Source of the DNA: a bacterium
GTDB taxonomy: Bacteria > Krumholzibacteriota > Krumholzibacteriia > LZORAL124-64-63
Length of the DNA: 46,632 bases
NCBI GenBank assembly: GCA_031441465.1
Contig: JANOEP010000012.1
Coordinates: 1 to 46,632, forward strand
Direction: 5' to 3'
Below, one piece after another: positions 18,168-36,493 of the stretch. How positions within the stretch are numbered: position 1 is the first letter of the stretch; every line of letters begins with the position of its first letter. Below the pieces are notes generated by a model. The model was not told the DNA's origin, did no database searches, and saw nothing but the letters and a program-made list of their open reading frames with translations. Both the position numbers and the translations under genes were made by a program.

Positions 18168-18409
18168 GCAAAGCAATGGAACTGGTCTCGTACCTCGCGG
18201 TGAACCTGGTCGACCATCCCGAAGACGTGCGCATCCAATCCATGGAGCGCGACGGCGAGGAGATTTTCCTGGTGCGGGTGCATCCGGACGACGTGGGGCA
18301 GATCATCGGCAAGGGAGGCGCGACCGTGAAGGCGGTGCGCAGCCTGCTGCAGGCCGTGGGCACCCGGGTCGACCGTCGTTTCGGCTTCGAGATCGCGAAC
18401 GAGCAGTAG
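18164..18409 (+). CDS. khpA: KH-domain RNA-binding protein KhpA (YlqC)
   Basis: LVDHPEDV, V.PDDVGQIIGKGG.T..AVR; position between rpsP and rimM. Confidence 0.93.
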   Translation: MSKAMELVSYLAVNLVDHPEDVRIQSMERDGEEIFLVRVHPDDVGQIIGKGGATVKAVRSLLQAVGTRVDRRFGFEIANEQ

Positions 18410-18412
18410 GGC

Positions 18413-18946: not shown

Positions 18947-19673
18947 GGTCGTCACCCTGTTCCCGGAGATGATCCGGGAGGTCCTGTCCACCAGCATCCT
19001 GGGACGGGCCGCGCGTCAGGGGCAGGTGACCTACGAAGTGCTGGACATCCGCGACCATGCCGTGGACCGCCACGGGACGGTCGACGACGCACCCTACGGG
19101 GGGGGCGCGGGGATGGTCCTGATGGCGCCGCCGGTGATTGAGGCGGTCGAGGCCGCGCGCTCCGGCGACGCGACGCCCCTGCTGCTGATGTCGGCGCAGG
19201 GCGAGCGGTTGGACGAGGACCTGGTGCTGGAACTGGCCGCGCAGGCCACGGCCGCCGGCGAACTGGTGCTGGTCTGCGGGCACTACAAGGGTGTCGACCA
19301 GCGGGTCCTGGATCTGCTGCGGCCGCGCGAGGTCTCCATCGGGGACTACGTGCTGACCGGCGGGGAACTGCCCGCGCTTGTGGTGATCGACGCCCTGGTG
19401 CGCCGGTTGCCAGGGGTGCTGGGCAACAGCGACTCGGCCGAGAGCGACAGTTTCACCGCCGCGCTCGACGGCGGACTCGAGGGTCCCTGGTACACCCGGC
19501 CTCCGGAGTACCGCGGGCTCGCGGTGCCCGAGATCCTGATCTCGGGGCACCACGCCAACATCGAGCGGTGGCGCGCGGAGAGATCGCGGGAGCGCACGCA
19601 ACAGCGTCGTCCCGACCTCGCCGCGGGACGGCGGCGGCCTGCGCCCGACGCGGGGGACGGCGCCGGAGAATGA
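18930..19673 (+). CDS. trmD: tRNA (guanine37-N1)-methyltransferase
   Basis: VTLFPE, VDDAPYGGGAGMVL, CGHYKGVDQR, SIGDYVLTGGELPA, PWYTRP, SGHHANI. Confidence 0.97.
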   Translation: MSLAIKVVTLFPEMIREVLSTSILGRAARQGQVTYEVLDIRDHAVDRHGTVDDAPYGGGAGMVLMAPPVIEAVEAARSGDATPLLLMSAQGERLDEDLVLELAAQATAAGELVLVCGHYKGVDQRVLDLLRPREVSIGDYVLTGGELPALVVIDALVRRLPGVLGNSDSAESDSFTAALDGGLEGPWYTRPPEYRGLAVPEILISGHHANIERWRAERSRERTQQRRPDLAAGRRRPAPDAGDGAGE

Positions 19674-19793
19674 CGAGCGAAGCCTGAAACGAACGACGCC
19701 GCCGCTCCCGCGAGGAGACGACGGCGAGCCACGACGGGGTCCGCGGACCCCGCCCCCCGGCGCGACGCCGGCGGGTTTGACCAGGAGGCCGCG

Positions 19794-20150
19794 ATGAGCA
19801 ACATCGTCGACACGATCCGCACCGAGAAGCTGCGCTCGGACCTGCCGGTGTTCAGCATCGGCGACACGATCCGCTGCCGGATGAACATCACCGAGGGCGG
19901 CAAGACCCGCATCCAGAACTACGAGGGTGTCGTCATCGCCCGCCAGGGTTCGGCGAACGAGGCCTCGATCACGGTGCGCAAGATCTCCAACGGCGTCGCC
20001 GTCGAGCGCGTGCTGCCGATCGAGAGCCCGAACCTCGCCGGCATCGAGCTGGTGCGCCGCGGTCGGATCCGCCGCAGCAAGCTCTACTACCTGCGAGAGC
20101 TGACCGGCAAGAAGGCCCGCATCCGCGAGAAGCAGTTCGGCCGGAAGTGA
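19794..20150 (+). CDS. rplS: 50S ribosomal protein L19
   Basis: P.F..GDT, EG.KTRIQ.YEGVVI, TVRKISNGVAVER, RGRIRRSKLYYLR...GKKARI. Confidence 0.97.
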   Translation: MSNIVDTIRTEKLRSDLPVFSIGDTIRCRMNITEGGKTRIQNYEGVVIARQGSANEASITVRKISNGVAVERVLPIESPNLAGIELVRRGRIRRSKLYYLRELTGKKARIREKQFGRK

Positions 20151-20824
20151 GCGGCTGCGGCGCCCGCCTGGCCGCCTTCGATCGCGAGCGCGCCGCCCCC
20201 GGGGCTAACGGGAACGGGACGCAGGTGGACGGGGTGCAATCGGACGGGCTACTCGTGATCGCCGGCACCGACGAGGCCGGCCGCGGTTGTCTGGCCGGTC
20301 CCGTGGTGGCGGCGGCGGTGGTGCTTCCGCCGGGCTGGGCGCCTGCGGCATTGGACGATTCCAAGCGGTTGACCGCCCGCCGGCGCGCTTCCCTGTACCA
20401 GGACATCGTCCGCGAGGCCCTGGACTGGCAAGCGGAGGCCGCCTGGCCCCGAGAGATCGAGAAGACCGATATCCTGCGCTCCAGCCTGCGCGCCATGGCC
20501 ACCGCCGTGGCGCGTCTGCGCGTCCGGCCCGACGTGGTGCTGGTCGACGGCAACCAGGCGCCGCCGTTGGCCTGCCCCGCCGTCTGCCTGGTGGGCGGCG
20601 ACGGCCTCAGCGCCGCGGTGGCCGCCGCCTCCATCATCGCGAAGGTCGTGCGCGACGCGCTCATGGTCGATCTGGACACCCGCCATCCCGGCTACGGCTT
20701 CGCCGGGCACAAGGGCTACGGCTCCGCCGATCACCTGGCGGCCCTGCGCCGGCTGGGTCCCTGCCCCCTGCACCGTCGCACCTTCGCCCCGGTCGCCAAT
20801 CTGCGGCAAGGCTCCCTCTGGTAG
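20147..20824 (+). CDS. rnhB: ribonuclease HII
   Basis: AGTDEAGRGCLAGPVVAAAV, DDSKRL, VDGN, GDG.S..VAAASIIAKV.RD, HKGYG, HRRTFAPV. Confidence 0.96.
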   Translation: MSGCGARLAAFDRERAAPGANGNGTQVDGVQSDGLLVIAGTDEAGRGCLAGPVVAAAVVLPPGWAPAALDDSKRLTARRRASLYQDIVREALDWQAEAAWPREIEKTDILRSSLRAMATAVARLRVRPDVVLVDGNQAPPLACPAVCLVGGDGLSAAVAAASIIAKVVRDALMVDLDTRHPGYGFAGHKGYGSADHLAALRRLGPCPLHRRTFAPVANLRQGSLW

Positions 20825-20856
20825 GCTTCCTGCTGCGAAGGCGGCGGGAGGTGGTC

Positions 20857-21228
20857 ATGCACCAGCACGCCGACGCCGCGACGCTCGGCCGCTGCGGCGA
20901 GGAGATCGCCGCGCAGTGGTACGTCGCCGAGGGATTCACGGTCCTCGCCCGACGGTTCCGGACCGGGCGCGGCGAGGTGGACCTCGTCGCCCGGCGCGGG
21001 CCCTTGCTGGTCTTCGTCGAGGTCAAGACCCGGCGCGGGGACGGCTGGGGATCGCCGGCCGCGGCGGTCGACGCCCGCAAGCTGTTGCGGTTGCGCGTCG
21101 CCGCCCGGGCCTGGCTCGCCGCACACCCGGCCCGCGATGCGATGGAATTCCGCTTCGACGTCGCTGCGGTGCGCTTCGCGCCGGGCGGGGACGGGCTGCG
21201 GCTGGAGGTGATCGCCGGGGTCTTCTGA
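20857..21228 (+). CDS. yraN: YraN (UPF0102) family putative endonuclease
   Basis: LGRCGEE.A, GEVDLVA, LVFVEVKTR, FRFDV; follows rnhB. Confidence 0.92.
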   Translation: MHQHADAATLGRCGEEIAAQWYVAEGFTVLARRFRTGRGEVDLVARRGPLLVFVEVKTRRGDGWGSPAAAVDARKLLRLRVAARAWLAAHPARDAMEFRFDVAAVRFAPGGDGLRLEVIAGVF

Positions 21229-21403: not shown

Positions 21404-23935
21404 ATGGCCGACTACGATTTCCAGGAGATCGAACCGCGCTGGCGCGAGTTCTGGACCCGCACCGGGCACGACCAGGTGGACTGGGACTCCGACAAGCCCA
21501 AGTGCTACTGCCTGAGCATGTTCTCCTACCCGTCGGGCGACAAGCTCCACCTCGGCCACTGGTACAACTACGTGCCGGCCGACACCTGGGCCCGCTATCG
21601 GCGCCAGCGCGGCGACAACGTGTTCCAGCCGGTCGGTTTCGACAGCTTCGGCCTGCCGGCGGAGAACTTCGCCATCAAGTGCGGCGTCCACCCCGGCGCG
21701 CACACGACCGAGAACATTGCCTTCATTCGCGAGCAGCTGCGCACGCTGGGGCCGATGTACGACTGGCGCAGCGAGCTGGCCACGCACACCCCCGAGTACT
21801 ACGCCTGGACGCAGTGGCTCTTCCTGACCCTCTTCGAGCACGGGCTCGCCTACCGCGCCGCGCAGCCGGTGAACTGGTGCGACTCGTGCCAGACCGTGCT
21901 CGCCAACGAGCAGGTCGACGACGGCGCCTGCGAACGCTGCAAGTCCGAGGTCGTCCGCAAGAACCTGACCCAGTGGTGCTTCCGCATCACCCGCTACGCC
22001 GACCGCCTGATCGACAACCTCCCCGCGCTGGACTGGCCGGAGGAGACCAAGAAGAAGCAGACCAGCTGGATCGGCCGCAGCCACGGCGCCGAGATCGTCT
22101 TCGTCGCGCGGCTCGCCGACGGCGCCGCCGCGCCCGCCGGCGCCGACACGCAGGCGGACGGCTCGCTCGCGCTGCGCGTCTTCACGACCCGTCCCGACAC
22201 GCTGTTCGGCGTCACCTACCTGGCGCTGGCCCCCGAGCACCCGCTGGTCGACGTGCTGACCGACGCCGCGCACCGGGCGGACGTCGCCGCCTACCGTCGC
22301 CATTCGGCGCGGCTGAGCGAGGTCGACCGTCAGAGCAGCGACCGACCCAAGTCCGGCGTGCCGACGGGAGCGACGGCCGTCAATCCCGTCAACGGGGAGG
22401 CGGTGCCGATCCTGGTCGCCGACTACGTGCTGGCCGGCTACGGCACCGGCGCGGTCATGGCGGTGCCGGCCCACGACGAGCGCGACTTCGCGTTCGCCGC
22501 GGCGTTGGGCCTGCCCGTGCGGCAGGTGATCCTGCCCGAGGGGACCACGACCGCCGCGACCTTCGGCGAGGCCTGGACCGGCCCCGGCCGGATGACCGCC
22601 TCCGGCGTCTACGACGGCCTGGACGGCGAACAGGGCGCCAGGCGCCTCGTCGCGGACCTCGAGGCGCGCGGTCTCGGCTGCGCGAAGGTCCAGTATCGCC
22701 TGCGCGACTGGCTGATCAGTCGCCAGCGCTACTGGGGGGCGCCGATCCCCATCATCCATTGCCCGACCTGCGGCGAAGTGCCGGTGCCACTCGACCGCCT
22801 GCCGGTGCTGCTGCCGCAGGACGTGGACTTCCGCCCGCGCGGCAAGGCACCCCTGGCCAGCAGCGAGGCCTTCATGGCCGTGGACTGCCCGCGCTGCGGC
22901 GGGCCCGCCCGGCGCGACCCCGACACGATGGACACCTTCGTCTGCAGCAGCTGGTATTTCCTGCGCTACCCCGAGCCCGGCCTGCGCGACGCCCCGTTCC
23001 GTTACGAGACGCTGCGCAAGTGGCTGCCGGTGGACATGTACGTCGGCGGCGCCGACCACGCCTGCGGGCACCTAATCTTCTCCCGCTTCATCACGATGGT
23101 GCTGCACGACCTCGGTTTCGTGCCGGTCGAGGAACCCTTCGCGAGGCTGCGCCACCAGGGCATGATCACCCGCGACGGCGAGAAGATGTCCAAGAGCAAG
23201 GGCAACACCGTCGTGCCCGCCGACTACCTCGAGCGCTACGGCACCGACACGCTGCGCGCCTACCTCATGTTCGGCTTCGCCTTCGCCGACGGCGGGGACT
23301 GGACGGACGAGGGCCTCGACGGCATCTGGCGCTACCTCAACCGCGTCTGGCGCCTGGTGGACGCGGTGCTCGAGGACCGCTCGCCCGCCGGCGACGCGCC
23401 CGCCGCCGCCGCCGCGCTGAGCGCCGAGCAGATCGCCGAGCGCTGGCCCCTGCTGCGCCGGGTGCTGCACAACTCCGTGCGCGGCTGCACGCAGGATCTC
23501 GAACGCTTCCAGTTCAACACGGCGCTCAGCCGCCTGATGGAATTGACCAACGCCCTTTACCACTACTGCGGCCGCGAGCGGCCCTCGCCGGCGGACGCCG
23601 ACTTCCACGGGGCGCTGACGGCGCTGGTGCAGATGATCGCGCCGTTCACGCCGCACCTCGGCGCGGAACTGTGGCTGAGGCTGGGCCGGGACGGCTCGGT
23701 CTTCGATCATCCGTGGCCCGTCTGGCGCGACGAGTACCTCGTCGCCGACTCGGTCACCTACGTCATCCAGATCAACGGCAAGATCCGCGAGCGCATGGAG
23801 GCGCCCCGCGATGCCGACGCCGGGCAGGTCGAGCGCGACGCGCTCGCGCACGGCCGCGTCCCCGAGTTGATCGGGGCGGGGCCGGTGCGCAAGGTCGTCG
23901 TCGTGCCCGGCAAGCTCGTGAACATCGTCGTCTGA
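21404..23935 (+). CDS. leuS: leucine--tRNA ligase
   Basis: MFSYPSG..LHLGH, VLANEQV, WIGRS.G, FTTRPDTLFG, GTGAVMAVPAHDERDF, DWLISRQRYWGAPIP, DTMDTF, KMSKSKGN, QINGK, VPGKLVNIVV. Confidence 0.98.
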   Translation: MADYDFQEIEPRWREFWTRTGHDQVDWDSDKPKCYCLSMFSYPSGDKLHLGHWYNYVPADTWARYRRQRGDNVFQPVGFDSFGLPAENFAIKCGVHPGAHTTENIAFIREQLRTLGPMYDWRSELATHTPEYYAWTQWLFLTLFEHGLAYRAAQPVNWCDSCQTVLANEQVDDGACERCKSEVVRKNLTQWCFRITRYADRLIDNLPALDWPEETKKKQTSWIGRSHGAEIVFVARLADGAAAPAGADTQADGSLALRVFTTRPDTLFGVTYLALAPEHPLVDVLTDAAHRADVAAYRRHSARLSEVDRQSSDRPKSGVPTGATAVNPVNGEAVPILVADYVLAGYGTGAVMAVPAHDERDFAFAAALGLPVRQVILPEGTTTAATFGEAWTGPGRMTASGVYDGLDGEQGARRLVADLEARGLGCAKVQYRLRDWLISRQRYWGAPIPIIHCPTCGEVPVPLDRLPVLLPQDVDFRPRGKAPLASSEAFMAVDCPRCGGPARRDPDTMDTFVCSSWYFLRYPEPGLRDAPFRYETLRKWLPVDMYVGGADHACGHLIFSRFITMVLHDLGFVPVEEPFARLRHQGMITRDGEKMSKSKGNTVVPADYLERYGTDTLRAYLMFGFAFADGGDWTDEGLDGIWRYLNRVWRLVDAVLEDRSPAGDAPAAAAALSAEQIAERWPLLRRVLHNSVRGCTQDLERFQFNTALSRLMELTNALYHYCGRERPSPADADFHGALTALVQMIAPFTPHLGAELWLRLGRDGSVFDHPWPVWRDEYLVADSVTYVIQINGKIRERMEAPRDADAGQVERDALAHGRVPELIGAGPVRKVVVVPGKLVNIVV

Positions 23936-23958: not shown

Positions 23959-26900
23959 ATGAACTACTGGGACCAGCTGGCCGAGGCTCGCGCCCGGCTC
24001 GAGGCGGGGGATCTCCGCCAGGCCGAGGCCTGTTTCGCCGAGGCGGGGGACAGCCGCGAGCGCTCGCCCGTGCGCGTCTTTTTGAGCGAGAAGATGGGGA
24101 GCGCGGCCAAGCGCGCGCTGACCAGGATCCGGGGCGCCGGCGCCGGCGACAAGGGCGAAGCCGGGCGCTGGGAGCGCGAGCGGGCCGACTTCGTGGCCTG
24201 CTTCCGCGAGCAGGCGCGCGGCCTGCTGGACCGGGCGCGCGCTTCCGTCGCGGCGCCGGGCGCCGTCCCGCCGCGCGAGCGCCTGAACCTGGCGGCCGGC
24301 GCCGCCTACCTCACGGCGTCCAGCGAGCTGGCCGACCTGCGAAGGATCGATCCCTCACCCTTCCTCGAGGCGGCGCTGGCCGCCGCCTGCGAAGCGGGCT
24401 GCCCGCCTCCGGACGGCTTGCTGGCCGTCTCGTTGCCCCTGGCGGCCGACGTCCGGTTGCGGCTGGCGGCGCGTGTCCTGGAGTTCGCACGCCGCGGACC
24501 GCTGGACGACGCCGCCCGCGGGCTTGCCCGCGACGCCGACGCCCTGCTGGCTCCGGAACACATGGTCGGTCCCGCCCAGGAAGCCGAGCGGCTCTGGCTG
24601 GCCGCGCAACTGGCCGAAGGGCCGCTCGACGACGCGCCGCGGGCCGCGGCGCTCTACGCCGCCTGCGTGCGGGAGCCGGGCACGCCCGCCGACCGGTGCG
24701 ACCTGGCCCGTCTCGCCGCCGCCGCTCTGCTCGCCAACCTCGACCGCTTCGCGCTGCCGGTCCCGCGCTACGACGAAGCCCTGGCCCTGCTCGAAGCCGT
24801 CGCCGCCGACGCGACGGTCGAACGCCGCCGCCGTGCGGCCTTGTCCGTCCTGCAAGAGCGGCAGATCGCGACGCGAGACGGCATTTGGGCCTCGGCCGCC
24901 AAGGGTGCGGGGAAAGTCCAGGGCCAAGGCGCCGGGAGGGTCGACGGGTTCGTGGTGGTCTGGCGCCGCAGCCGGCCCGTCGATGTTCTGAGCTGGCATG
25001 ACGGGGCCTCCGCAGCAGCGGTCGCCGCGTACCTCGGCGAGGCGCGCGAGCGTGTCCTGGTGCTCGATGAGATCGGCAACGAACTGCCCAGCTGGGAGTT
25101 GCGGAGTCTGGTGGAAGCGTTGCTGGAGCCGGAGCTGCCGGCTCATGGTCTGGATGACGGCATGCTGACCTCCCTGGCCGCCCTGCGCTGCGAGGCCCCG
25201 TCGTCGCACCCGCTTTTCGGCGACGAGCCACGGGGACCGAGTTCCGGCGCTGTCGCGGACGCCCTGCGGGCGGGACGGGTCTGGCTCGGCGCCGCGGCTC
25301 GGCTGGCGGCCGCCGAACCCGGCCAACGGGGCATGATCCGCGAACTGGCCCGCCGTGGCGACGCCGCGGCCAAGCTGGTGGCGGCGTTCCTGCCGCCCGA
25401 TCTCGTGCGTCCCCAGGGCTGGCCCCTGACCCCGTTGCAGGACCGGCCGTCACCGCGCGCCTTCGGCACCACGGCGATGGACGGCGGGCGCCGCCACGTC
25501 GAACCGCGCGATCCCGAACTCGCCGCCTCGGCGTCGGCGCTGGTGTTCACCGCCGACCGGGCGTCGGCGCTGGAAGCCTGGGGCCAACGTCGCGGTGCCT
25601 GGCGTGTCGTTCTGGACGGCGCCGACCGACTGGCGGAGTTCGCCGGTGCCTTGGCGCGCCATCCGGGCGCGTGGACCCTCGTGCCGCCGGCTGGGTCGAT
25701 CCACGACCGCGACGCGGCTCTGTCCCGGTTGTCCGACCTGGCCACGACGCCGGGGCTGGGCCTGCTGCCCCTGGTCCACGCCTGCCGCCTCGCCGCGAGC
25801 CACAACGGAGATCTGGCCGATCACCGCCGGCTGCGCCCGCGATCCCACGGCGCCTGCCCCTTGTTCGATCGCTACGAGACCTGGACGGCACAGCTGCCGC
25901 GGTGCGACGCGACGACGGAACCAGCCGGTTGGGCGGCGGAACTGGCCCGACGCGTGGATGGCGACGCCGCGGTCGTGGGGTTGGTCGGCGACCTGCCGGT
26001 CGACGAGGCGGCGCGCGCACGCCGCTGGGGGCTGGACGGCAGGGCCGCCGCCTGGGTTTTCGCCGACGCCGCCGTGATCAATTGGCGCTGGCATCGCCGC
26101 GGCGCCGCCGAACCGGCCGCCCGTCACCGTGCCCTGGCCGGCGCGGGCACGGGCCAGCTGTCGTTGCTCGCGCCGGCTCCGATCCTCGACGGCGACCTCA
26201 CGGCGGTCCTCGGGAACTGGCTCTCGGCGCACGGCGCCTGCCGGGTCTTCGTCCGGGGCGGGGACGCGACGACGCCCGTGTCGCTGGCCGTCGGCGGCCC
26301 GCCACCGGACGCGCGGGTCCGGTTGGGCGCCGCCGCGGTGGCCCACGCCCGACGCCTCTCGCAGCTGTCCGGCACGGCCGGCGCCTGCCTGCTCGTGCCG
26401 GCGACCGGTCCGCTGGGCGCCTGCCTGCAAGGCCTGGCGCGTGGCGAGGTCACCGCCTCGCCGGCCGCCAGGCTCGCCGTCGAACGGCAGGACGATTTCT
26501 GGGACGATCCGGACACCGCCCGGCGTTGCGCCGGGGGGGTCGTCTATGTCCCGCAGATGGAAAGCCTGGACCCCGTTGCCGCCGGCGGCACGGATGACGC
26601 CTCCTGGCAGCGCCGGGATGCCGCCGCCGCCACGGCCGCCGAGCAACGACGCGCCTTGCTGGCGCTGGAACTGCACGCGCTGCGGAGCAGGGGAGCCGGC
26701 ACGATCATGGTCGGGGACACGCGGTGGTGGCGCACGTTCCCGCTCGGCGCGGCCGGAAGCCCGGCTCTGGATGCCGCCGGGGCGGCCGCCTTGGCGGGGG
26801 CGTGGGACGTCGGCGTCTTCGATCTGGACGGCGAACCGGCGCGGGCCCCCCAGCGACGCGGCCGCGACGCGGACCCGCTGCGCACGGCGGTCGTGGGCTG

Positions 26901-29900
26901 GCTGCAGGTTCAGGGCTGGACCGATGCCGAGGGGCGCGGCGTGCCGCCGGGATTTCTGGAGCGAGAGCGCTCGGCGCTGCCCCGGGATTGGCCCACGGCG
27001 CGTCGTCGCCTCGTGCTGGGCGATCCGGCGCCCGCCTGGCTCCACAGCGCGACGGCGGTGGCCGCTGCGCGCGAAGACGGCGATCACGGCGCCTGGCTGC
27101 TGGTCGTGAGCGATTCGCCTCCGCCCGAGGCGGCCGCCCTGCGCGACGCCATGCTGTCGCCTCGGCCATCCCTGCTCGCCGGGAGCGTTTCGCAGCAGGG
27201 AGAGGGCTGGCACGCCGTCACCTGGGCCCGGCCGACCGATCTCGCCGATCCCGCACTGGTGCAACGCCTCGCCCGGCGACCCCCGACGGAGATCTGGGCC
27301 GGGGACCTGGGCGAATGGCTCCCGTCGCGCGCGACCGACGGCGGTCGCTTCGCGCCTTGCCTGCATGCGCTGCTGCACCTGGTCGACGCGCCGATGACGC
27401 TGCAGGCGACGGACCTGCCCGGTTCCTGGCGTCGTCACCTGGCGGGTCTGTTCGAGCACGCCGGCGGTCTGGTTCACGACACGCTGGACGACGCGACGAT
27501 GTCGGACCTGGAGGACCTGCCTCCCGTCGCGATCGGTCGCGTCCCGCACCCGAATTGGCCGTGCCCTTGCTGCGGGTCGGTCTCGGCTTGGCAACGCTGG
27601 TCCCAGGGCTGCCCCGCCTGCGGTTCGTCGCTGGAGCGCTGGGCGTCGCCCGCGAACCGCTCCGCGCTGCTGCGGCACATCTGGCAGGAGAAGCTCCAGG
27701 TCCTGGCCCAGCGCACGACGGCGCCCCGGACCGAACCGCTGTGCGTCTGGACGGCGCCCGAGCACCTGGAGCTGTTGACGTCCCTGCTCGAGGCGACGGG
27801 CCGTCGCTGGCGGTTGCAGCCCACCCGGCAACTGACGGTCTCTCCCGGCGCCGACGAATGGCTCGTCTGCATCCTGGGCCGAGCCGAGGAGCCGCCGGCC
27901 GAATGCCGCCACGCCCTGCTGGACCCGCCGCCCGGCGAACAGGAACTGCGACGGTTCCGCCTGCGGGCCCGCGGCGAGACGAGCCTCTGGTACCACGCGC
28001 TCGAACTGGATCCCGCCTGCGGCGCGCTGGCCGGTGACGACCGCCGCGCGACCAGCGGCGATTTCCGACGCCTGCTCGCCGTGACCTCGGCGCTGTCCCG
28101 GTCCCACGCCGGCCCCGGCGGTGACGGCGCGCTGCCGCCCCGCTGCGTGGAGGTGCTCACCGGCCTGCCCGCCGCGGATGTGCGGCGCGCCTTGGGTGTC
28201 GCAGCCTGGTCGGCGGCGGTCGGCGGCCGCAGCGTCGAGCGGGAGCAGGTGCCGCCGCCGCGGTGCGTGCGGCTCGCGGTGGCCCTGGTGGAAGCCGAGT
28301 ACCGCCTGGAGCGTCTCGGCGCACAACTGCCGCGAGTGATCTCATCGCTGGGCGCCGCGACGGCGCTGGAGGGATCGCCCCTGCTGACCGAACCGGCCCG
28401 CCTGTGGCCGTGGCTCGACCCGACCGAACGCGGTTGGTGGGACCGACTGTTGTTGGCCGTCTCGCCGCAGCGCGCGCCGTCCGGCCGGGCCCTGCTGGTC
28501 TACGCCGCGGCGGGCGGGGCGCTCCATTCGCCGCGACGCCGCTGCGGCGTGCGCGGGGACGCCGCCGCGTTGGCCGCGCTGGTCGCCGACCGGTTGGCGG
28601 CCGTGCGCCTCCGAGCGCAGGCGCTGGCCGGGAACGGGGGAGGGGCGGGCCCGCTCACCGATGCGGATGACGACGTGCACGCGGCGGGCGTGATGCTCGA
28701 CCTGTGGCGCGTCGACGGCGCGCCGGCGTGCGGCGAGATCGTCCTGGAAGAATTCGCCGCCGTGTTCGCGGCCGGAATCGACCCGGGACCCGCGGCCGAA
28801 CTCCTGGCCGCCCTGGCCCGCGAGGACGAAGTGTGGCGGGAGCAGTTGCTCGAAGCCTGGCGTGACGGCTTCCTGCCCGATGTGACTCCTGTCGCCGGGC
28901 GGCGCTCCGTACGTGAGGCCGCCACCGAGACCGTCGCCGCCTGGCCGCCGCCCGGTTCGCCGCCCCTGGTGCTGGAAGGCATGACGGGAACAGGCGCGCC
29001 CGAAGAGGCCGCTCGCCTGCTCGCCGCGCTGCTGGACGCCGGGACCGATCACCGTCAGATCGTCGTGATCGCGCCCGGCACCGCCGCAGCGGCCCGGTTC
29101 CACCTCGGCTGGCGTCGGATCCGCCCCGGCCTGCCGCTGCTGAACGTGGTGCTGGCCGGCGACAGCCTGGAACTGGGCGATCCGCCCGGGGACGGGATCC
29201 TGTCCGGCGCGCCCGCCGAAGAGGTGCTGGTGCTGCTCGAAGCCCAGGACCTCACGACCACGCTGCGTTTCCGCGCCGCCCAGCGATTCCAGGCCGGCCG
29301 GCAGCTGTGGACGGTGGACCCGATGCTCTGCCAGGAGACGCGCGAGCACCTCTACCTGGTGGTGCCGCCCCGGCAGCAGGTGGTCGCCCTGCGGGACCAG
29401 CGCGACCAGTCGCGCCAGGTGTGCGAGGAGATCCTGGATCTGGTCGCGCGTTTCGCCGGCGAACGACCTCGCGTCCGCGCCCGGCGACGGGAACGCGGCG
29501 AGGTCGTGTCCTCCTACACCACCAACGGCCCGGAGGCCGTCAACCTCATCGTCGAACAGCAACGCGGCGGCGCCGGGCGTCTTTGGAATCTGGTCGCACC
29601 GGTGCGCGGCGATTTTGTCACGCTCGCGCAGAGTGCGTCGCTCGCGGGCTGGATCCCGGTGGAACGCCACCGCCTGGATGCGCTGCTGCTGCCGGGACCG
29701 CTCGAGATCCTGGCCCTGGCCTTGGACGTGGCCGCCCGCGGCGCCGCACCCGTCCACGCCGCCACACCTGCCGCCGCCGGCCTGATGACGGCGCCGGCGT
29801 CTCAGGAATACCGGCGGTGGCTGGCAGAAGCGGCCCCGCCGCCGACCGCGACCCTGGCGACTCTGATTTCCCTGGTGGCCCGCGCCGGCTGGTCGGAATC

Positions 29901-30234
29901 ACTGCTGGCTTGGCCGGTGGTGCGCCGTCGGTTGAAGGGGCTCGTCGCGGACTTCGGCGCCACCTCGCTCGCGGATCTGGCCCGCGAGCCGCTGCTGGCC
30001 GCGTGGCGGCTCGAAGTCGACGGTATCGGCGACCTGCGGGCGCCGCCGGGCGGGTCGCCGATCCTGGCGCTCACGACACCCGACGACGGCGTCGGCGGCC
30101 GGCCCCACGATCTGGCGTGCCTGTTCTTCGGCAACGAGATGCCGCGGCATCTCTACCGCGCGATCGCGCCGGCGGGCGACCGGCTGCTGGTGTGCTACAA
30201 GGACCGCTCGCCGCTCGGGGAGGACGGCGACTGA
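23959..30234 (+). CDS. 2091-aa hypothetical protein; probable fusion of inactivated DnaQ-exonuclease, DinG, RecQ and UvrD modules
   Basis: ATG 23959 after AGGGG, 23 bp downstream of the leuS stop; uninterrupted 6.3-kb frame filling the space to the next gene; spacing of degenerate helicase motifs recognisable by eye (see findings). Confidence in the CDS is higher than in the product call. Confidence 0.75.
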   Translation: MNYWDQLAEARARLEAGDLRQAEACFAEAGDSRERSPVRVFLSEKMGSAAKRALTRIRGAGAGDKGEAGRWERERADFVACFREQARGLLDRARASVAAPGAVPPRERLNLAAGAAYLTASSELADLRRIDPSPFLEAALAAACEAGCPPPDGLLAVSLPLAADVRLRLAARVLEFARRGPLDDAARGLARDADALLAPEHMVGPAQEAERLWLAAQLAEGPLDDAPRAAALYAACVREPGTPADRCDLARLAAAALLANLDRFALPVPRYDEALALLEAVAADATVERRRRAALSVLQERQIATRDGIWASAAKGAGKVQGQGAGRVDGFVVVWRRSRPVDVLSWHDGASAAAVAAYLGEARERVLVLDEIGNELPSWELRSLVEALLEPELPAHGLDDGMLTSLAALRCEAPSSHPLFGDEPRGPSSGAVADALRAGRVWLGAAARLAAAEPGQRGMIRELARRGDAAAKLVAAFLPPDLVRPQGWPLTPLQDRPSPRAFGTTAMDGGRRHVEPRDPELAASASALVFTADRASALEAWGQRRGAWRVVLDGADRLAEFAGALARHPGAWTLVPPAGSIHDRDAALSRLSDLATTPGLGLLPLVHACRLAASHNGDLADHRRLRPRSHGACPLFDRYETWTAQLPRCDATTEPAGWAAELARRVDGDAAVVGLVGDLPVDEAARARRWGLDGRAAAWVFADAAVINWRWHRRGAAEPAARHRALAGAGTGQLSLLAPAPILDGDLTAVLGNWLSAHGACRVFVRGGDATTPVSLAVGGPPPDARVRLGAAAVAHARRLSQLSGTAGACLLVPATGPLGACLQGLARGEVTASPAARLAVERQDDFWDDPDTARRCAGGVVYVPQMESLDPVAAGGTDDASWQRRDAAAATAAEQRRALLALELHALRSRGAGTIMVGDTRWWRTFPLGAAGSPALDAAGAAALAGAWDVGVFDLDGEPARAPQRRGRDADPLRTAVVGWLQVQGWTDAEGRGVPPGFLERERSALPRDWPTARRRLVLGDPAPAWLHSATAVAAAREDGDHGAWLLVVSDSPPPEAAALRDAMLSPRPSLLAGSVSQQGEGWHAVTWARPTDLADPALVQRLARRPPTEIWAGDLGEWLPSRATDGGRFAPCLHALLHLVDAPMTLQATDLPGSWRRHLAGLFEHAGGLVHDTLDDATMSDLEDLPPVAIGRVPHPNWPCPCCGSVSAWQRWSQGCPACGSSLERWASPANRSALLRHIWQEKLQVLAQRTTAPRTEPLCVWTAPEHLELLTSLLEATGRRWRLQPTRQLTVSPGADEWLVCILGRAEEPPAECRHALLDPPPGEQELRRFRLRARGETSLWYHALELDPACGALAGDDRRATSGDFRRLLAVTSALSRSHAGPGGDGALPPRCVEVLTGLPAADVRRALGVAAWSAAVGGRSVEREQVPPPRCVRLAVALVEAEYRLERLGAQLPRVISSLGAATALEGSPLLTEPARLWPWLDPTERGWWDRLLLAVSPQRAPSGRALLVYAAAGGALHSPRRRCGVRGDAAALAALVADRLAAVRLRAQALAGNGGGAGPLTDADDDVHAAGVMLDLWRVDGAPACGEIVLEEFAAVFAAGIDPGPAAELLAALAREDEVWREQLLEAWRDGFLPDVTPVAGRRSVREAATETVAAWPPPGSPPLVLEGMTGTGAPEEAARLLAALLDAGTDHRQIVVIAPGTAAAARFHLGWRRIRPGLPLLNVVLAGDSLELGDPPGDGILSGAPAEEVLVLLEAQDLTTTLRFRAAQRFQAGRQLWTVDPMLCQETREHLYLVVPPRQQVVALRDQRDQSRQVCEEILDLVARFAGERPRVRARRRERGEVVSSYTTNGPEAVNLIVEQQRGGAGRLWNLVAPVRGDFVTLAQSASLAGWIPVERHRLDALLLPGPLEILALALDVAARGAAPVHAATPAAAGLMTAPASQEYRRWLAEAAPPPTATLATLISLVARAGWSESLLAWPVVRRRLKGLVADFGATSLADLAREPLLAAWRLEVDGIGDLRAPPGGSPILALTTPDDGVGGRPHDLACLFFGNEMPRHLYRAIAPAGDRLLVCYKDRSPLGEDGD

Positions 30235-30680
30235 TCCCCACGGTCGGTCGCGAGGCGACGACGGGCCACCGCCAGCGCCGCGGGATAGCCGGCCGCCGCC
30301 AGCGCGACGCCCAGCGCGATCGCGCCGAGCCAGGCCGTCAGCAGCGCTTCGCCCAGCTGGGCTCGGGCCAGCGCGCCGCTGACGAGGTCCGGCATAGGAC
30401 GCCCGAGCAGCCAGGTGCCCAACCGCACGTCGAGCAGCGCCAGGGGCAGGAAGGTGAGCGGGTTCGAGAGGTTCGAGGCCAGCAGCGCCGCCGGCCGGTT
30501 CGCGCGCAGCGCCGCCGCCAGGCCCAGGGCCATCCAGGTGTGCAGGCCGAGCACCGGGGTCGGCGCCACCAGCAGTCCCGCCGCCACGCCGCGCGCCAGG
30601 GCCCGCGGGTCCCGCGTCGGTCCCACCGCCGCCCGCCACACCCCGCGCACGTCTTGCCGCCATCTTGCCGGCAGCCCCAT
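30195..30680 (-). CDS. DUF2062-family membrane protein
   Basis: P..LARGVAAGL.V..TP..G.HT...L.LA..LR.N..AA....N.SNPLT..P pattern with hydrophobic helices; 3' end overlaps the giant ORF by 40 bp. Confidence 0.8.
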   Translation of the reverse strand: MGLPARWRQDVRGVWRAAVGPTRDPRALARGVAAGLLVAPTPVLGLHTWMALGLAAALRANRPAALLASNLSNPLTFLPLALLDVRLGTWLLGRPMPDLVSGALARAQLGEALLTAWLGAIALGVALAAAGYPAALAVARRRLATDRGDQSPSSPSGERSL

Positions 30681-30697
30681 CGCCGCTCCCTCTTTTC

Positions 30698-30726
30698 TTG
30701 TTCGCCGTATCGGCGGCTGCTACCTT
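30698..30726 (+). promoter_or_regulatory. possible sigma70 promoter for tnaA
   Basis: TTGTTC (30698-30703), 17 bp, extended -10 TGcTACCTT. Confidence 0.45.
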
Positions 30727-30798
30727 CGAATCCTCAGGATGCTCGCCCGTGCCGCCCGTGGCAAGGTCTTCCGACGTCTCCCTGGTCGAGGAGGATCC

Positions 30799-32193
30799 AT
30801 GGATTTGCCCTTCGTCCCCTACCGCATCAAGGTTGTCGAACCGGTCCGCCGCGTGAGCCGCGAGGAACGCGCCGCGGCGCTGACCAAGGCCGGCTACAAC
30901 GTGTTCGGCCTGGCGAGTTCCACGATCTACGTCGACCTGTTGACCGACAGCGGCACCTCGGCGATGAGCGACGCCCAGTGGGGCGCTCTAGTGCAGGGGG
31001 ACGAGGCCTACGCGGGCAGCCGCAACTACTACGACTTCGAGGACACCATCCGCGACATCTTCGGCTACCGCCACGTCATCCCCACGCACCAGGGTCGCGT
31101 GGCGGAAAACCTCTTGTTCACCACGCGGCTCGACCAGCGCTCGGTCGTGCCCAACAACATCCATTTCGACACCACGCGCGCCAACGTCGAGCACCAGGGG
31201 GCGCTGGCGCTCGACTGCGTCATCGACGAGGGGCTCGACCCCACCGGCGACCACCCGTTCAAGGGCGACATGTCGCTGGCGAAGCTGGCCGAGGCCTTCG
31301 ACCGGTACGGCGACCGCATCCCCTTCGTCATGATCACGATCACCAACAACAGCGGCGGCGGGCAGCCCGTCTCGCTGAAGAACATCCGCGAGGTCTCCGC
31401 GTTCTGCCACGGCAAGGGCGTGCCCCTGATCTTCGACGCCTGCCGCTTCGCCGAGAACTCGTGGTTCATCAAGCGGCGCGAACCGGGCTACTGCGACCGC
31501 TCCATCAAGGAGATCGCGCGGGAGATCTTCGCCCTCGGCGACGGCTGCACGATGAGCGCCAAGAAGGACGCCCTGGTGAACATGGGCGGCTTCCTCTGCC
31601 TCAACGACGACGACTGGGCCCGCGACGTCACCAACCTGCTGATCCTCATCGAGGGCTTCCGCACCTACGGCGGCCTGGCCGGGCGCGACCTGGCCGCGGT
31701 CGCGCAGGGCCTGCGCGAAGTGCTCGATGACGATTACCTGACCTACCGCATCGGCCAGGTCGCCCGCATGGGCGAGCAGATGCAGGAGCGCGGCGTGCCG
31801 ATCCTGACGCCCGTCGGCGGCCATGCCGTCTACGTCGACGCGCGCCGCCTGCTGCCGCACCTGCCCCAGAGCGCGTTCCCGGCGCAGGCGTTGACCTGCG
31901 CCCTGTACCTCGAGGGGGGGGTGCGCGGGGTCGAGATCGGCAGCCTGATGTTCGCGCACGCCGACCCCGCGACGGGCCGGACCGTGCACCCCGCGATGGA
32001 ACTGGTGCGCCTGGCCGTGCCGCGACGCGTCTACACCGAGACGCACCTGGCCTACGTGGCGGAGGTCTGCGGTCGCCTGCGCGAGATCGGCGAGCGCCTG
32101 CGCGGTCTGGAAATCGTCGAGGAGGCGCCGGTCCTGCGCCACTTCACGGCGCGCCTGCGCCCGCTCGGCGGCGGGGCCCTGATCGAGGCTTGA
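30799..32193 (+). CDS. tnaA: tryptophanase (beta-eliminating lyase family)
   Basis: GAGGAGG RBS; PYRIKVVE, DLLTDSGT, GDEAYAGS, PTHQGR, HFDTT, PLP lysine in MSAKKD, C-terminal LRHFTA. Tyrosine phenol-lyase typically has MSGKKD and LRFFTA instead. Confidence 0.9.
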   Translation: MDLPFVPYRIKVVEPVRRVSREERAAALTKAGYNVFGLASSTIYVDLLTDSGTSAMSDAQWGALVQGDEAYAGSRNYYDFEDTIRDIFGYRHVIPTHQGRVAENLLFTTRLDQRSVVPNNIHFDTTRANVEHQGALALDCVIDEGLDPTGDHPFKGDMSLAKLAEAFDRYGDRIPFVMITITNNSGGGQPVSLKNIREVSAFCHGKGVPLIFDACRFAENSWFIKRREPGYCDRSIKEIAREIFALGDGCTMSAKKDALVNMGGFLCLNDDDWARDVTNLLILIEGFRTYGGLAGRDLAAVAQGLREVLDDDYLTYRIGQVARMGEQMQERGVPILTPVGGHAVYVDARRLLPHLPQSAFPAQALTCALYLEGGVRGVEIGSLMFAHADPATGRTVHPAMELVRLAVPRRVYTETHLAYVAEVCGRLREIGERLRGLEIVEEAPVLRHFTARLRPLGGGALIEA

Positions 32194-32206: not shown

Positions 32207-32845
32207 TTGTTGCTGCGCGTGGAACCCGGCGACTGGGCGCACGCCGCGGCCGTCGCGGCGCTCGCCCGCGAAGCGGCCCGTTGCCACGGCTTGACGGAGC
32301 GGCTCCGCGAACTGTCGTTGATCCTCGACGACTTCGTGCCCGACGAACGGCCATGGCTGCGTTTCCCGAACCCGGACTCGCTGGAGATCTACGGCCATCC
32401 CGGCCACTTCCTCGCCGAGCGCGGCGCCGAACTCCCCGGCCGGTTGCCGACCCTGCCGTGGGAGTTCCGCGCCTCGCCGGCGACCGTCGAGGCGCCGCCG
32501 TTCGCACCCGTGCGCGGCGAGCGTTTCCTGCACCACCACTTCCTGGCCGTGGCCGACATGCTGGTGTCGCGGATCGACCCCGCCCGGGTGCCGCCGGTGC
32601 GGGCCGAGGCGTTCCAGGAGGTCTGGGACGTGACGATCGACGGCCGTCTGCGGCGTCACCACCTGCCGGGTCTCCCGGTGGCCGAGCGCCGCCGCCGTTT
32701 CGCCCGTCTCTTCGGACCCGCGGGCGTGCTGCTGCCCAGGCATTGGGAATTGTTCCACGAACTCTGGGAATGCGACGACCCGACGCAGGACGGCCTGCTC
32801 GCCTGCGCGGACCGGCTGCCGCCCCTCGGGCTGCGGCGGGCCTGA
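32207..32845 (+). CDS. hypothetical protein
   Basis: TTG start after GGAGG, 13 bp behind tnaA; normal codon bias; contains FLHHHFLAVADML and WDVTIDGRL. Confidence 0.7.
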   Translation: MLLRVEPGDWAHAAAVAALAREAARCHGLTERLRELSLILDDFVPDERPWLRFPNPDSLEIYGHPGHFLAERGAELPGRLPTLPWEFRASPATVEAPPFAPVRGERFLHHHFLAVADMLVSRIDPARVPPVRAEAFQEVWDVTIDGRLRRHHLPGLPVAERRRRFARLFGPAGVLLPRHWELFHELWECDDPTQDGLLACADRLPPLGLRRA

Positions 32846-33053
32846 ACCCGGTCCTGCGGCGGGGATTGCATTTGCTTTTTCAGCCGTGGTTCGCCAATTT
32901 CATGTCACGGTCGCCTGCGAGAACCGGTGTTGACGGGGCAGCGCGGCGGCGGGTACCTTGCGATCGCGACCCTGCGCTGCGCAGGCCCGGATTCGTCGGT
33001 TGAGCCGGCCGCGGACGGTCGGCGCGATTCGATACCCCCAAGGGAGGTTGTCC

Positions 33054-33947
33054 ATGTTTGCTGCAACGTCCGTGCTGCGACGGACTCCGCTTCTCCTCGT
33101 GGCGATCGTGGTCGCCGCGGTCCTGGCCGGCCTCGCCGGCTGCAGCAGGGAAGAAGTGGTGGTCGATCCCTACCGGTCCGCCCCGTTGGAGGCCGTCATG
33201 GCGGGCGCCGACACCATCCGCAGCCCGGACTTCCTGTTCGAGATCGACGGGCCCGCGCTCTACTTCGCGCGCGGCGACGTGGCGATCGTCAAGCAGGGCA
33301 ACCAGATGCATTTCCTGGTCGGACCCGCTCTCCAGGCGGACTACGCGGGCAAGTACCAGGGCCAGCGCCTCGGCGTCCAGAAGCGCTTCACCGACCGCGC
33401 GACCGGGACGGCCACGACGCACCTGTGCCTGATGGGCGTGCGCCAGGGCAGCACGATGGCGACCGTCGATTCGATCGGCAGCTACACCCTGCCGACGATC
33501 CTCAAGCTCAGCAAGCAGCAGCTCGAAACCCCGGGCACGAACCTCAACGAGATGGACGCCCGCGTCTTCGAGTCGTTCAAGGCGCTGCTGCCGGCGACTC
33601 CCGGCGCCCGCGCGCCGGACGCCCAGTCGATGGTGGAGCGCTTCGTCTACGCGCCGCGCCATGACCTCACGGCGGAGCAGCGCGCGAACCCCGGCCCGAA
33701 CGATCACGCGTGGTACATCGTGCTCGACCAGGCGACACTACGCGTCGTGGACGTGGGCCCCGGCGCCCACTACATGCTCCAGGTGCTGCAGGAGAAGAAC
33801 CTGCCCCTGGTCGGCTCGTTCTCGCTCGTCGAGGTTTCCGATTCGATCATCGAGCGCACCAGGTCCTACGGCAGCCTGCGCAACGTATGCGGCACGATCA
33901 GGATCAACTGGTTCAAGATCGCGAACACCGTGGTGCGCGGCACCTAG
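33054..33947 (+). CDS. hypothetical lipoprotein
   Basis: GGAGG RBS; basic-hydrophobic signal ending in lipobox LAG-C; strong GC3 bias; possible promoter TTGACG-18-TACCTT at 32930-32959. Confidence 0.8.
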   Translation: MFAATSVLRRTPLLLVAIVVAAVLAGLAGCSREEVVVDPYRSAPLEAVMAGADTIRSPDFLFEIDGPALYFARGDVAIVKQGNQMHFLVGPALQADYAGKYQGQRLGVQKRFTDRATGTATTHLCLMGVRQGSTMATVDSIGSYTLPTILKLSKQQLETPGTNLNEMDARVFESFKALLPATPGARAPDAQSMVERFVYAPRHDLTAEQRANPGPNDHAWYIVLDQATLRVVDVGPGAHYMLQVLQEKNLPLVGSFSLVEVSDSIIERTRSYGSLRNVCGTIRINWFKIANTVVRGT

Positions 33948-34032: not shown

Positions 34033-34992
34033 TCAAGTCAGCAACCGCAGCATCTGCTCGTAGGCCAGGACCTGCTTGCGGGCGGTGTCGCTGCGCGAGG
34101 CCAGCGGGCTGGTCTTGATGCGGCTGGCGACCAACCCGACCATCTTGCCGCGCTCGCCGCCGAGCAGCAACTGCGTGGCTTCGACGCCGAATCGCGTGGC
34201 CAGCATGCGGTCCGAGGCCGAGGGGGAGCCGCCGCGCTGCACGTGGCCGAGCACGACCATGCGGATGCTGCGCTTCAGCCGGCTCTTGAGTTCGTACTCG
34301 ATGTAGGGCGCCTTGGCGGCGCCCTCGGCGACCAGGATCACCGCGTGCTGCTTGCCGCGGTTGTAGCCGCCTTCGATGCGGCGGCAGATGGCGTCCAGGT
34401 CGAAGGGGATTTCCGGGACGATCACTTCCTCGGCGCCGGTGCAGAGGCCGGCCGCCATGGCCAGCAGGCCGCAGGAGCGGCCCATGACCTCGATCACGAA
34501 GATCCGCCCGTGGCTCGAGGCCGTGTCGCGGATCTTGTCCACGGCGTCCACGGCGATGTTCAGCGCCGAGTCGAAGCCGATGGAGAAGTCGGTGCCGGGG
34601 ATGTCGTTGTCGATCGTCGCCGGCACTCCCATCACCGGCAGGTCGAATTTCTTGTCGAGCACCGCGCCGCCGCGGAAACTGCCGTCGCCGCCGATGATCA
34701 CCAGGCCGTCGAGTTTCAGTTTCTTCAGTGCGTGGCCGACCTTCTCCTGCCCGGCCTCCTCCTTGAAGTCCGGGTAGCGGAAGGTGCGCAGGATCGTGCC
34801 GCCGGCGTGCAGGATGCCCGCGACGTCGCGCGAGTTCAGCGGCCGCGCGTCGGCCTCGCTCAGGCCCAGCCAGCCCCGCTGGATGCCGACCACCTCGACG
34901 CCGCCGCTCAGCGCCGTCCTCACGACGGCCCGCAGGGCCGCGTTCATGCCGGCGGAGTCGCCGCCTCCCGTCAAGACACCGATGCGCTTCAT
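34033..34992 (-). CDS. pfkA: ATP-dependent 6-phosphofructokinase
   Basis: MKRIGVLTGGGDSAGMNAA, GGTIL, IGGDGS..G, PATIDNDI.GTD, DTASSH, EVMGR, LGHVQRGG.P...DR. Confidence 0.97.
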   Translation of the reverse strand: MKRIGVLTGGGDSAGMNAALRAVVRTALSGGVEVVGIQRGWLGLSEADARPLNSRDVAGILHAGGTILRTFRYPDFKEEAGQEKVGHALKKLKLDGLVIIGGDGSFRGGAVLDKKFDLPVMGVPATIDNDIPGTDFSIGFDSALNIAVDAVDKIRDTASSHGRIFVIEVMGRSCGLLAMAAGLCTGAEEVIVPEIPFDLDAICRRIEGGYNRGKQHAVILVAEGAAKAPYIEYELKSRLKRSIRMVVLGHVQRGGSPSASDRMLATRFGVEATQLLLGGERGKMVGLVASRIKTSPLASRSDTARKQVLAYEQMLRLLT

Positions 34993-36398: not shown

Positions 36399-36493
36399 GC
36401 GGCCCATAGTATCCGGTTTCGCCGCCCGCACAAGCCGGACCTGCGGGCGCGGGTCGGGGTGCGGGCGGGCGGCGGTGGTGCGACCTTGGTGCA

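Follow-up and report, generated by a model that had tools for sequence, protein, structure and literature searches.

RecC and AddB retain a superfamily 1 (SF1) helicase fold without motor activity and use it to recognize DNA or as a scaffold. PriA of Deinococcus radiodurans (PMC4504706) and Utp25 of yeast (PMC9539457) are described as helicase folds without helicase motifs that act as assembly or loading factors. Among DinG-type proteins of superfamily 2 (SF2), DinG of S. aureus is reported not to be a helicase and still hydrolyses ATP (PMC3270479), the pExoDinG subgroup has a dead nuclease domain and is described with an ATP site (PMC11981726), and some DinG subgroups also lack the iron-sulfur (FeS) cluster (PMC11981726; PMC3270479). 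Loss of activity in either half of an exonuclease-DinG protein therefore has precedent. Here we describe a giant gene of 2091 codons plus stop at positions 23959..30234 (+) of a 46,632-nt stretch of Krumholzibacteriia DNA (contig JANOEP010000012.1, hereafter the window). Its product combines an SF2 core of DinG type with an SF1 core of UvrD type, both having lost the residues that bind and split ATP. PriA of D. radiodurans and Utp25 are, as described, proteins of ordinary size with a single core, whereas the giant protein carries an SF2 and an SF1 core in one chain. Helicase folds and pseudo-helicases as a class are known already; this family is new. The full texts searched (without supplements) and the DinG review (PMC11981726) contained no fused SF2 DinG-like and SF1 UvrD-like protein without ATPase motifs and no account of this family, and no paper among those full texts tied this lineage to such a protein.

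Translation of the giant gene gave no internal stops, and regular-expression scans of the 2091-aa product found no G..G.GK[ST], [AG]....GK[ST], GK[ST] or DE.[HDQ]; an unbroken 6.3-kb frame devoid of Walker A and DExx motifs, as claimed in an earlier note on this DNA, is thereby confirmed. The ATG lies 23 nt past the stop codon of leuS, and the N-terminus MNYWD is common to the gene and its orthologs. Codon-position GC (0.80/0.58/0.87) shows a coding pattern in each 600-nt bin, similar to leuS. Antisense and off-frame open reading frames (ORFs) of up to 958 aa are also open within the stretch, as happens in high-GC DNA (genome GC is about 72%), so the open frame alone carries little weight. A word-indexed search of 5.8 billion proteins returned eight relatives, 2031-2122 aa long and 83-32% identical, none with a Pfam domain. 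Run against 1.84 billion representatives, a profile of the C-terminal third found just 94 proteins, about 40 of them full-length (1669-2290 aa) and the remainder fragments. The public annotation of the copies seen reads "hypothetical protein" throughout, and one carries the organism label Candidatus Krumholzibacteriia bacterium. The full giant protein matched all 24 other genomes examined from the family of the window (19 genera) and none of 16 genomes from six other families of the same class. With the C-terminal profile, which is more sensitive, 57 of 60 genomes of the family gave a match; the three without one are assemblies 84-92% complete, two of which hold N-terminal pieces. An open frame of at least 1847 aa surrounds the match in 49 of 58 matching family genomes (G000 included). 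Counting the window's own copy, 17 copies of full length (1972-2279 aa) in a single frame were retrieved, and within the family divergence reaches about 30% identity.

Against an ortholog 82% identical, the ratio of nonsynonymous to synonymous substitution rates (dN/dS, Nei-Gojobori) is 0.28 at a dS of 0.39, with values of 0.18-0.37 in 300-codon bins. The last 491 codons of leuS give 0.27 for the same pair of genomes, about the same as the giant gene. The claim of an intact frame under selection is thus supported by intact orthologs across the family and by this ratio. The earlier note had also suggested that the protein is a sensor, a scaffold, a decoy or the inactive partner of an active paralog, all of which are hypotheses; the window's own genome (96.8% complete) holds a single copy of the giant gene and no paralog. 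One could still suppose a decaying pseudogene or a chance open frame, given the antisense ORFs of up to 958 aa in this high-GC DNA and frame changes in two genomes of the genus. The coding GC pattern throughout, the dN/dS of 0.28, confident structural models, and intact orthologs down to about 20% identity across two families speak against it, and we regard this explanation as refuted for practical purposes.

The folds of the two cores were recognized in AlphaFold2 models of residues 1-1165 (pLDDT 88.7, pTM 0.79) and 1150-2091 (pLDDT 86.8, pTM 0.90), each built on a 49-row alignment (A4 and A5). The models were searched with Foldseek, with VIA-align and with a wide search of 48,161 chains that is independent of Foldseek; the best 50 matches were listed. 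Residues 1651-2091 (28909..30231, +) form a UvrD/Rep/PcrA-like SF1 core with degenerate motifs. Foldseek placed UvrD (2is6_B, E 3.9e-10), PcrA and Rep first, followed by AddA, AdnAB, SLFN11/14, RecD2 and GajB. In VIA-align this region (model positions 502-942) superposes on UvrD 2is6_B with Z 25.3 and a root-mean-square deviation (rmsd) of 3.8 over 325 aa, and other scores were 22.0 for AddA, 21.5 for SLFN11, 20.8 for Rep, 20.1 for AddB and 19.1 for HelD. SF1 chains outrank SF2 chains in the wide search, and the two RecA-like domains have the SF1 arrangement. The listed matches of the C-half model cover only its positions 501-942.

Relative to UvrD, Rep and PcrA (2is6, 1uaa, 3pjr), the giant protein superposes on the paired RecA-like core, spanning UvrD residues 2-638, and the order of motif-like blocks agrees by eye. 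It differs in being only about 12% identical, in having no PF00580 match, and in lacking the P-loop Lys, the P-loop Ser/Thr and the Walker B Asp. Its SF1 core is also shorter, about 440 aa as against about 640, so that the accessory 1B and 2B domains are reduced, and it is fused behind 1650 residues of other domains. SLFN11, SLFN14 and HelD offer compact SF1 cores of similar size: SLFN11 matches with Z 21.5 over 282 aa, while HelD (Z 19.1) has the highest identity to the giant protein among the matches, 18-21%. These proteins have N-terminal domains of their own, SLFN11/14 being eukaryotic and HelD bound to RNA polymerase, and no sequence-level relationship to the giant protein was found.

Conservation of the SF1 motifs was counted over 49 family members, with motif names set by eye from SF1 consensus motifs and guided by the alignment. 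A remnant P-loop, G-M-T-G-T-G-A-P, occupies residues 1674-1681 (28978..29001, +). Its glycines are kept (G1674 in 49 of 49 members, G1677 in 48 and G1679 in 45), while the lysine position, 1680, is Arg in 41 members, Ala in six (the window's genus and its closest relatives) and Lys in two, and the Ser/Thr position is mostly Leu or His. Motif II of the window protein reads L-E-A-Q-D against a consensus of D-E-x-Q-D. The Walker B Asp position is Leu in 24 members, Cys in 10, Val in eight, Ile in three, Ala in three and Thr in one; it is hydrophobic in 46 of 49 and never Asp, while E1761 is kept in 40 and Q1763 in 36. The motif VI-like Arg is kept in 36 of 49 members and is Pro in the window's genus. 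The best-conserved SF1 blocks lie elsewhere (P1706 in 48, E1796 in 46, P1803 in 49, P1912 and G1913 in 49 and E1916 in 46 of 49), and we equate them, by eye, with motifs Ia, III and V, which contact the strand.

A less degenerate form of the protein exists in a sister family (f6). A phylum-wide search gave weak C-terminal matches in five of nine f6 genomes, three of them within open frames of 2064-2081 aa. These three giants (L032 in G140, L033 in G034 and L034 in G029) are 19-21% identical to the window protein and share with it an N-terminal M-S-Y-W... helix and a C-terminal H-Y-R-V-L...L-Y-S-E-x-D-P. The SF1 P-loop is canonical GVAGSGKT in L033 and GVAGSGRS in L032, and an acidic pair in motif II (VLVDD or ILLDD) is present in all three; metagenome fragment P0136 carries GAPGAGKT. 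The SF1 module therefore descends from a competent-looking P-loop NTPase. As read from these sequences, its P-loop decayed stepwise, from GKT in f6 through GR in most of the window's family to GA in the window's genus, a series that represents a natural experiment in the passage from motor to non-motor. Four further proteins (P0087, P0093, P0095 and P0101) considered as short stand-alone relatives were rejected as fragments, since their alignment falls on the C-terminal end of the giants from the sister family; P0087, P0093 and P0136 sit on contigs of 2-4 kb.

These observations bear on whether the SF1 core could still be an NTP-dependent motor or switch, in which the Arg of G-x-x-G-x-G-R together with E1761 and Q1763 would bind and slowly hydrolyse nucleotide, this ability being lost only in the window's genus. 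The near-invariant P-loop glycines, the presence, among 49 members, of Arg at the lysine position in 41, of E1761 in 40 and of Q1763 in 36, and the GKT and VDD strand retained by sister-family forms are all compatible with such an activity. So are the weak sequence matches of the family profile to P-loop proteins in the PDB (E 0.05-0.6) and to ORFs of 680-776 aa (E 1e-4 to 1e-5). On the other hand, the Walker B Asp position is never Asp, the Mg-holding Ser/Thr is missing in nearly all members, and the window's genus keeps the gene under the same selection even though Ala has replaced the P-loop Lys/Arg and Pro the Arg of motif VI. We consider a remaining motor or switch unlikely.

The second core, residues 509-957 (25483..26829, +), is DinG/XPD-like and of SF2 type, without NTPase motifs. 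VIA-align superposed it on the type IV-A DinG 8s35_M with Z 13.4 and rmsd 4.8 over 395 aa and on E. coli DinG 6fwr_A with Z 11.7 over 397 aa; XPD/Rad3 proteins gave Z 10.3-11.4, and CasDinG was matched as well. Among the best 50 matches of the N-half model in the wide search were nine DinG/XPD entries and no other helicase family, the others being TPR proteins that align to residues 1-302. Paired RecA-like domains in the DinG/XPD arrangement are thus present, at moderate Z values. The likeness to DinG and XPD (Z 10.3-13.4 for their cores) does not extend to function-bearing residues: the giant protein lacks Walker A, DEAH and the FeS cysteines and has no Pfam DEAD_2 or Helicase_C_2 match. The strand-loop-helix at 526-542 reads ..T531-G532-x-P.. 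and contains no GK[ST], and Walker A, DEAD or DEAH was found at homologous positions in none of the 49 members, a few of which carry scattered non-homologous strings of this kind. The DinG-like P-loop is already missing in f6. No Cys occurs among the 98 positions of residues 1-1165 that are conserved in at least 44 of 49 members, and because no Cys is conserved in at least 90% of members, a FeS cluster is not expected in this core. Loss of catalytic motifs within an intact and selected frame, which the earlier note had proposed from a single sequence, is in this way supported family-wide for both helicase cores.

What the DinG-like core does conserve is a different set of polar residues. R549 and D553 are present in 49 of 49 members and the loop H615-N616-G617-D618-L619-x-D621 in 48-49; together with H607, R610, E904, D920, R922 and W923, all kept in 48-49 of 49, they occupy residues 549-621 and 904-923 (about nt 25603-25821 and 26668-26727). 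These residues could constitute a new enzyme, that is, a catalytic or ligand site built from R549, D553, H607, R610, H615-N-G-D-L-x-D621, E904 and D920-x-R922 on a helicase scaffold. Their invariance in 48-49 of 49 members despite divergence to about 30% identity would fit this idea. Clusters of His, Asn and Asp are typical of metal sites, which adds to its appeal. The sister-family orthologs have not retained the motif and read TPDGDL and DPRLAE instead, and the surrounding invariant Trp, Gly and Pro suggest a structural role; we regard a new enzyme as decidedly unlikely. A bolder proposal, to which we give a similarly small chance, is that this single-chain train of fossil helicases, found next to leuS in most loci of the window's family and of f6, has become a core nucleic-acid machine that works without ATP in one candidate phylum, perhaps with a new catalytic or ligand-sensing centre at H607/R610/H615-D621. 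If true, it would be a new enzyme or sensor on a dead motor and go beyond a scaffold role.

Upstream of the DinG-like core, residues 1-302 (23959..24864, +) form an all-helical TPR-like domain. The model contains helices only up to residue 301, three orthologs show sub-threshold Pfam TPR matches, and residues 158-302 superpose on TPR domains with Z 11-12.5 and rmsd 2.4-4 over 112-129 aa (e.g., the YbgF TPR domain 2xev_A, Z 12.2, rmsd 2.5, 116 aa); the fits are tightest over this stretch, with Z 11.5-12.5 and rmsd 2.4-3.5 for isolated TPR domains. Since such Z values are common for helical repeats, TPR is a label by fold only. Residues 303-508 (24865..25482, +) are predicted to be mixed alpha/beta followed by helices, possibly a dead DnaQ/RNase H-like fold. 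The elements E309-315, E330-336, E339-346, H349-364 and E366-368, followed by helices, give the order beta-beta-beta-alpha-beta-alpha, and over 309-407 this succession of elements is compatible with a DnaQ/RNase H-like domain. Foldseek returned two matches for the N-half model at E<=0.001, both of them the S. aureus exonuclease-DinG fusion (best 8zef_A, E 2.6e-4, 973 columns), and next the CRISPR-associated DinG and Cas3. The first strand reads W310-A311-S/T without a D-x-E, and the sole conserved acid in 303-372 is D342 (47 of 49 members); if this domain is DnaQ-like, it would be a dead exonuclease. Against viral models Foldseek gave no N-half match at E<=0.001, with no exonuclease among the best 50 matches. 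ExoDinG and pExoDinG resemble the giant protein in having an alpha/beta domain before the DinG-like core, as the top Foldseek match illustrates; they differ in that the giant protein lacks both the nuclease-type residues (the DEDD acids are absent) and the ATPase-type residues and embeds the unit within a 2091-aa chain.

Between the two cores lies a middle region. Residues 958-1194 (26830..27540, +) form an alpha/beta domain in which strands alternate with helices (from E1016-1020 to H1155-1164 in the model) and which carries the conserved blocks RLxxGD, WLLVVxD.PP and DLxxWLP. A CxxC...CxxC zinc ribbon follows at residues 1195-1235 (27541..27663, +), its pairs located by regular expression at residues 1202 (CPCC) and 1218 (CPAC), and an optional alpha/beta domain occupies residues 1236-1360 (27664..28038, +; strands and helices at C-half model positions 112-195). 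The ribbon is the site of the NCBIfam TIGR02605 match (E 0.17), and Zn_ribbon_3 is sub-threshold in six of 23 orthologs scanned. Of 49 members, 34 have both CxxC pairs; in the other 15 the ribbon and the alpha/beta domain after it are deleted, leaving 67-105 aa instead of about 240. Residues 1361-1650 (28039..28908, +) consist of helical and small beta elements before the SF1 core (C-half positions 212-500, mostly pLDDT 80-95). The zinc ribbon is thus placed between two alpha/beta domains, whereas the RecQ encoded elsewhere in this genome has the order DEAD, Helicase_C, RecQ_Zn_bind, RQC, HRDC; Pfam finds RecQ_Zn_bind and RQC in that protein and neither in the giant one. No DnaQ-type and no RecQ-specific chain was among the best 50 matches per search, in lists dominated by TPR, DinG and SF1 parts and with the split between the models, at residues 1150-1165, cutting the middle region; this absence therefore carries little weight. 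The domain order read by eye in the earlier note accordingly holds in large part. Its helical N-terminus (residues 1-300) agrees with a model that is all-helical over 1-301, its DinG-like core (511-931) with the structural match spanning 509-957 at Z 13.4, and its UvrD-like core (1668-2091) with that spanning 1651-2091 at Z 25.3; these three of its five domains agree to within a few residues, and its DnaQ-like domain is a candidate only. Of the "triple" helicase, the DinG-like and UvrD-like cores stand, and the RecQ-like third is unsupported rather than refuted, no RecQ-specific match being among those listed.

Sequence searches name no helicase family for this protein. Pfam gave no match to the window protein at E<=1 (PF00580 and PF13361 are thus unmatched), NCBIfam gave only the zinc ribbon mentioned above, and PADLOC gave none. 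Against PDB sequences, a nine-row family profile found nothing at E<=10, family alignment A2 found sub-threshold P-loop proteins only (E 0.05-0.6), and alignment A3 found nothing meaningful. Pfam identified no helicase family in the three sister-family giants and, in relatives generally, gave merely sub-threshold zinc-ribbon and TPR matches; PF00580 is sub-threshold in fragments P0093 (E 0.0088) and P0136 (E 6e-4). The ORFs of 680-776 aa that the family profile weakly finds through the P-loop region, at E 1e-4 to 1e-5, are probably UvrD-type. Searches of the ESM Atlas with residues 958-1460 and 300-510 gave no usable match.

AddB is a strong structural match to the SF1 core (Z 19.7-20.1), and RecC was absent among the matches listed in the structure searches. 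This raises the possibility that the giant protein is a partner without activity of its own in an active helicase-nuclease, paired with one of the genome's canonical helicases as RecC is with RecB or AddB with AddA, an idea that overlaps with a scaffold role. Besides the two AddB matches (Z 20.1 and 19.7), a 1286-aa open frame in the genome holds a UvrD-type domain and could supply the active subunit, and the TPR domain would suit protein binding. RecC and AddB, in contrast, work with a nuclease domain and with an active subunit that is encoded next to them and co-transcribed, none of which was found at the giant gene's locus; no partner gene is linked to it, its conserved neighbours being leuS and a beta-eliminating lyase. 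We judge a dedicated partner subunit of this kind to be highly unlikely. The canonical helicases of the genome are encoded elsewhere (a DinG-type protein of 906 aa, RecQ of 619 aa and three UvrD-type proteins), and a PF00580 scan of the genome found three genes, the giant gene not among them. The giant protein therefore does not stand in for these enzymes.

The reading that we favour, and to which we give about an even chance, is that the giant protein is a vertically inherited pseudo-helicase acting as a non-motor scaffold or sensor that grips single-stranded nucleic acid and uses its TPR domain for partners. Domains of helicase ancestry would have been joined into one lineage-specific chain in the order TPR-like, alpha/beta (maybe a dead DnaQ), DinG/XPD-like, alpha/beta with the optional zinc ribbon, and UvrD/Rep-like. 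In this family the residues for binding and splitting ATP have been lost or substituted while purifying selection holds the folds and the 6.3-kb frame. The two helicase-shaped cores could hold single-stranded DNA or RNA in a static grip or provide a rigid platform, with the TPR domain recruiting partner proteins. Such a protein might work in housekeeping nucleic-acid metabolism and be co-transcribed with leuS. We prefer a non-motor role because the Mg- and phosphate-binding residues are lost, because decay went further in the window's genus under unchanged selection, and because of the housekeeping locus and the precedents described above.

Several observations weigh against this reading. The putative lack of ATPase activity is read from motifs mapped by eye onto helicase motif names and not from superposition residue by residue. 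Because 41 of 49 members keep the Gly-rich loop with Arg, and E1761 and Q1763 are mostly kept, the site may still bind nucleotide or phosphate. In the DinG-like module the invariant His, Asn, Asp and Arg residues could make up a new active site, in which case "non-catalytic" would be wrong. No fold is assigned to some 900 residues (303-508 and 958-1650). Pfam found no helicase family in 28 further full-length family members (5 + 23) or in the C-terminal parts of the proteins from 17 loci. Comparison of family profiles with the genome's own UvrD and DinG by hhalign returned probabilities of 0.09 and 0.05; we give these last values little weight because the predicted structures show helicase folds anyway. 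There are also interrupted copies. In the window's genus, the G004 copy (L024) has one frame change near residues 883-899 and the G001 copy (G001:C30) is in at least four pieces in different frames, and one TGA lies inside the matched stretch in three C-terminal-profile matches (G018, G124 and G148). The frame changes in G004 and G001 may be assembly errors or real decay; for G004 an assembly error is plausible, since a sister assembly of the species has an intact 2097-aa form.

A large family-level "dark" protein, named by no Pfam, NCBIfam or PADLOC family, thus joins the short list of natural pseudo-helicases. Within the searched literature it is the first case of SF2 DinG-like and SF1 UvrD-like cores, both without ATPase motifs, in one vertically inherited polypeptide encoded among core genes. 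The analysis also illustrates that structure prediction can annotate proteins which escape profile methods altogether, even when the alignment is small and drawn from a single lineage. The host bacteria are uncultured, and the proposed function is inferred from sequence and models.

The genomic setting is one of core genes. The gene order in the window is ffh, rpsP, rimM, trmD, rplS, yraN (UPF0102), leuS, the giant gene, a convergent DUF2062 gene, a beta-eliminating lyase and, later, an MgsA/RarA-type AAA ATPase. Pfam scans of the called neighbours, together with a PADLOC result of zero, revealed no mobility or defence genes beside the giant gene, which supports the earlier description of a core-gene locus free of mobility genes. 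This also bears on the suggestion that the protein serves anti-phage defence or diverts phage anti-helicase proteins as a decoy. Defence systems often contain large proteins with several helicases, and GajB, Cas3 and CRISPR-associated DinG appear among the structural matches. Yet PADLOC found nothing, no neighbouring defence or mobility genes were found, and the gene occurs as a single copy, passes vertically through practically all genomes of the family and keeps a fixed position among housekeeping genes next to leuS; we disfavour this explanation as very improbable.

The trmD operon (ffh, rpsP, rimM, trmD and rplS) and the UPF0102/YraN gene lie at 15750-21228, upstream of leuS (21404..23935, +; Pfam LeuRS domains), which directly precedes the giant gene across the 23-nt spacer. 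leuS is directly upstream in ten of 16 family loci and in two of three f6 loci. A subtilase takes its place in a clade of five loci (L017, L019, L020, L021 and L022), and the same five loci lack the zinc ribbon and the following alpha/beta domain, their proteins being about 150 aa shorter at this place. A promoter and terminator scan gave nothing exceeding shuffled background.

On the other side, the DUF2062 gene (30195..30680, -; PF09835, E 6.9e-26) is convergent with the giant gene and overlaps its last ~40 nt. The beta-eliminating lyase, of the tryptophanase/tyrosine phenol-lyase family (30415..32193, +; PF01212, E 9.8e-79), has its domain from residue 174, and its true start is probably later than the listed ORF start. 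In the window the DUF2062 gene stands between the giant gene and the lyase; in other genera the lyase comes directly after the giant gene. Of 16 family loci, 12 (L006, L010-L017 and L019-L021) have the lyase immediately after the giant gene, the other four having flanks that are too short or no ORF passing the filter. The lyase is downstream in none of the three f6 loci and has no evident functional link to the giant gene. Two ORFs with a coding GC pattern and no Pfam match follow it (32207-32845 and 32958-33947, both +), and Pfam-less ORFs after the lyase occur also in ortholog loci L013, L014, L019 and L020. The MgsA/RarA-type AAA ATPase gene lies further downstream at 34989-36515 (-). GC drops to 0.54-0.56 at 42097-46632 because of an rRNA operon there, which comprises 16S (42097-43653), two tRNAs (43776-43937) and 23S, the last running from 44026 up to where the window ends.

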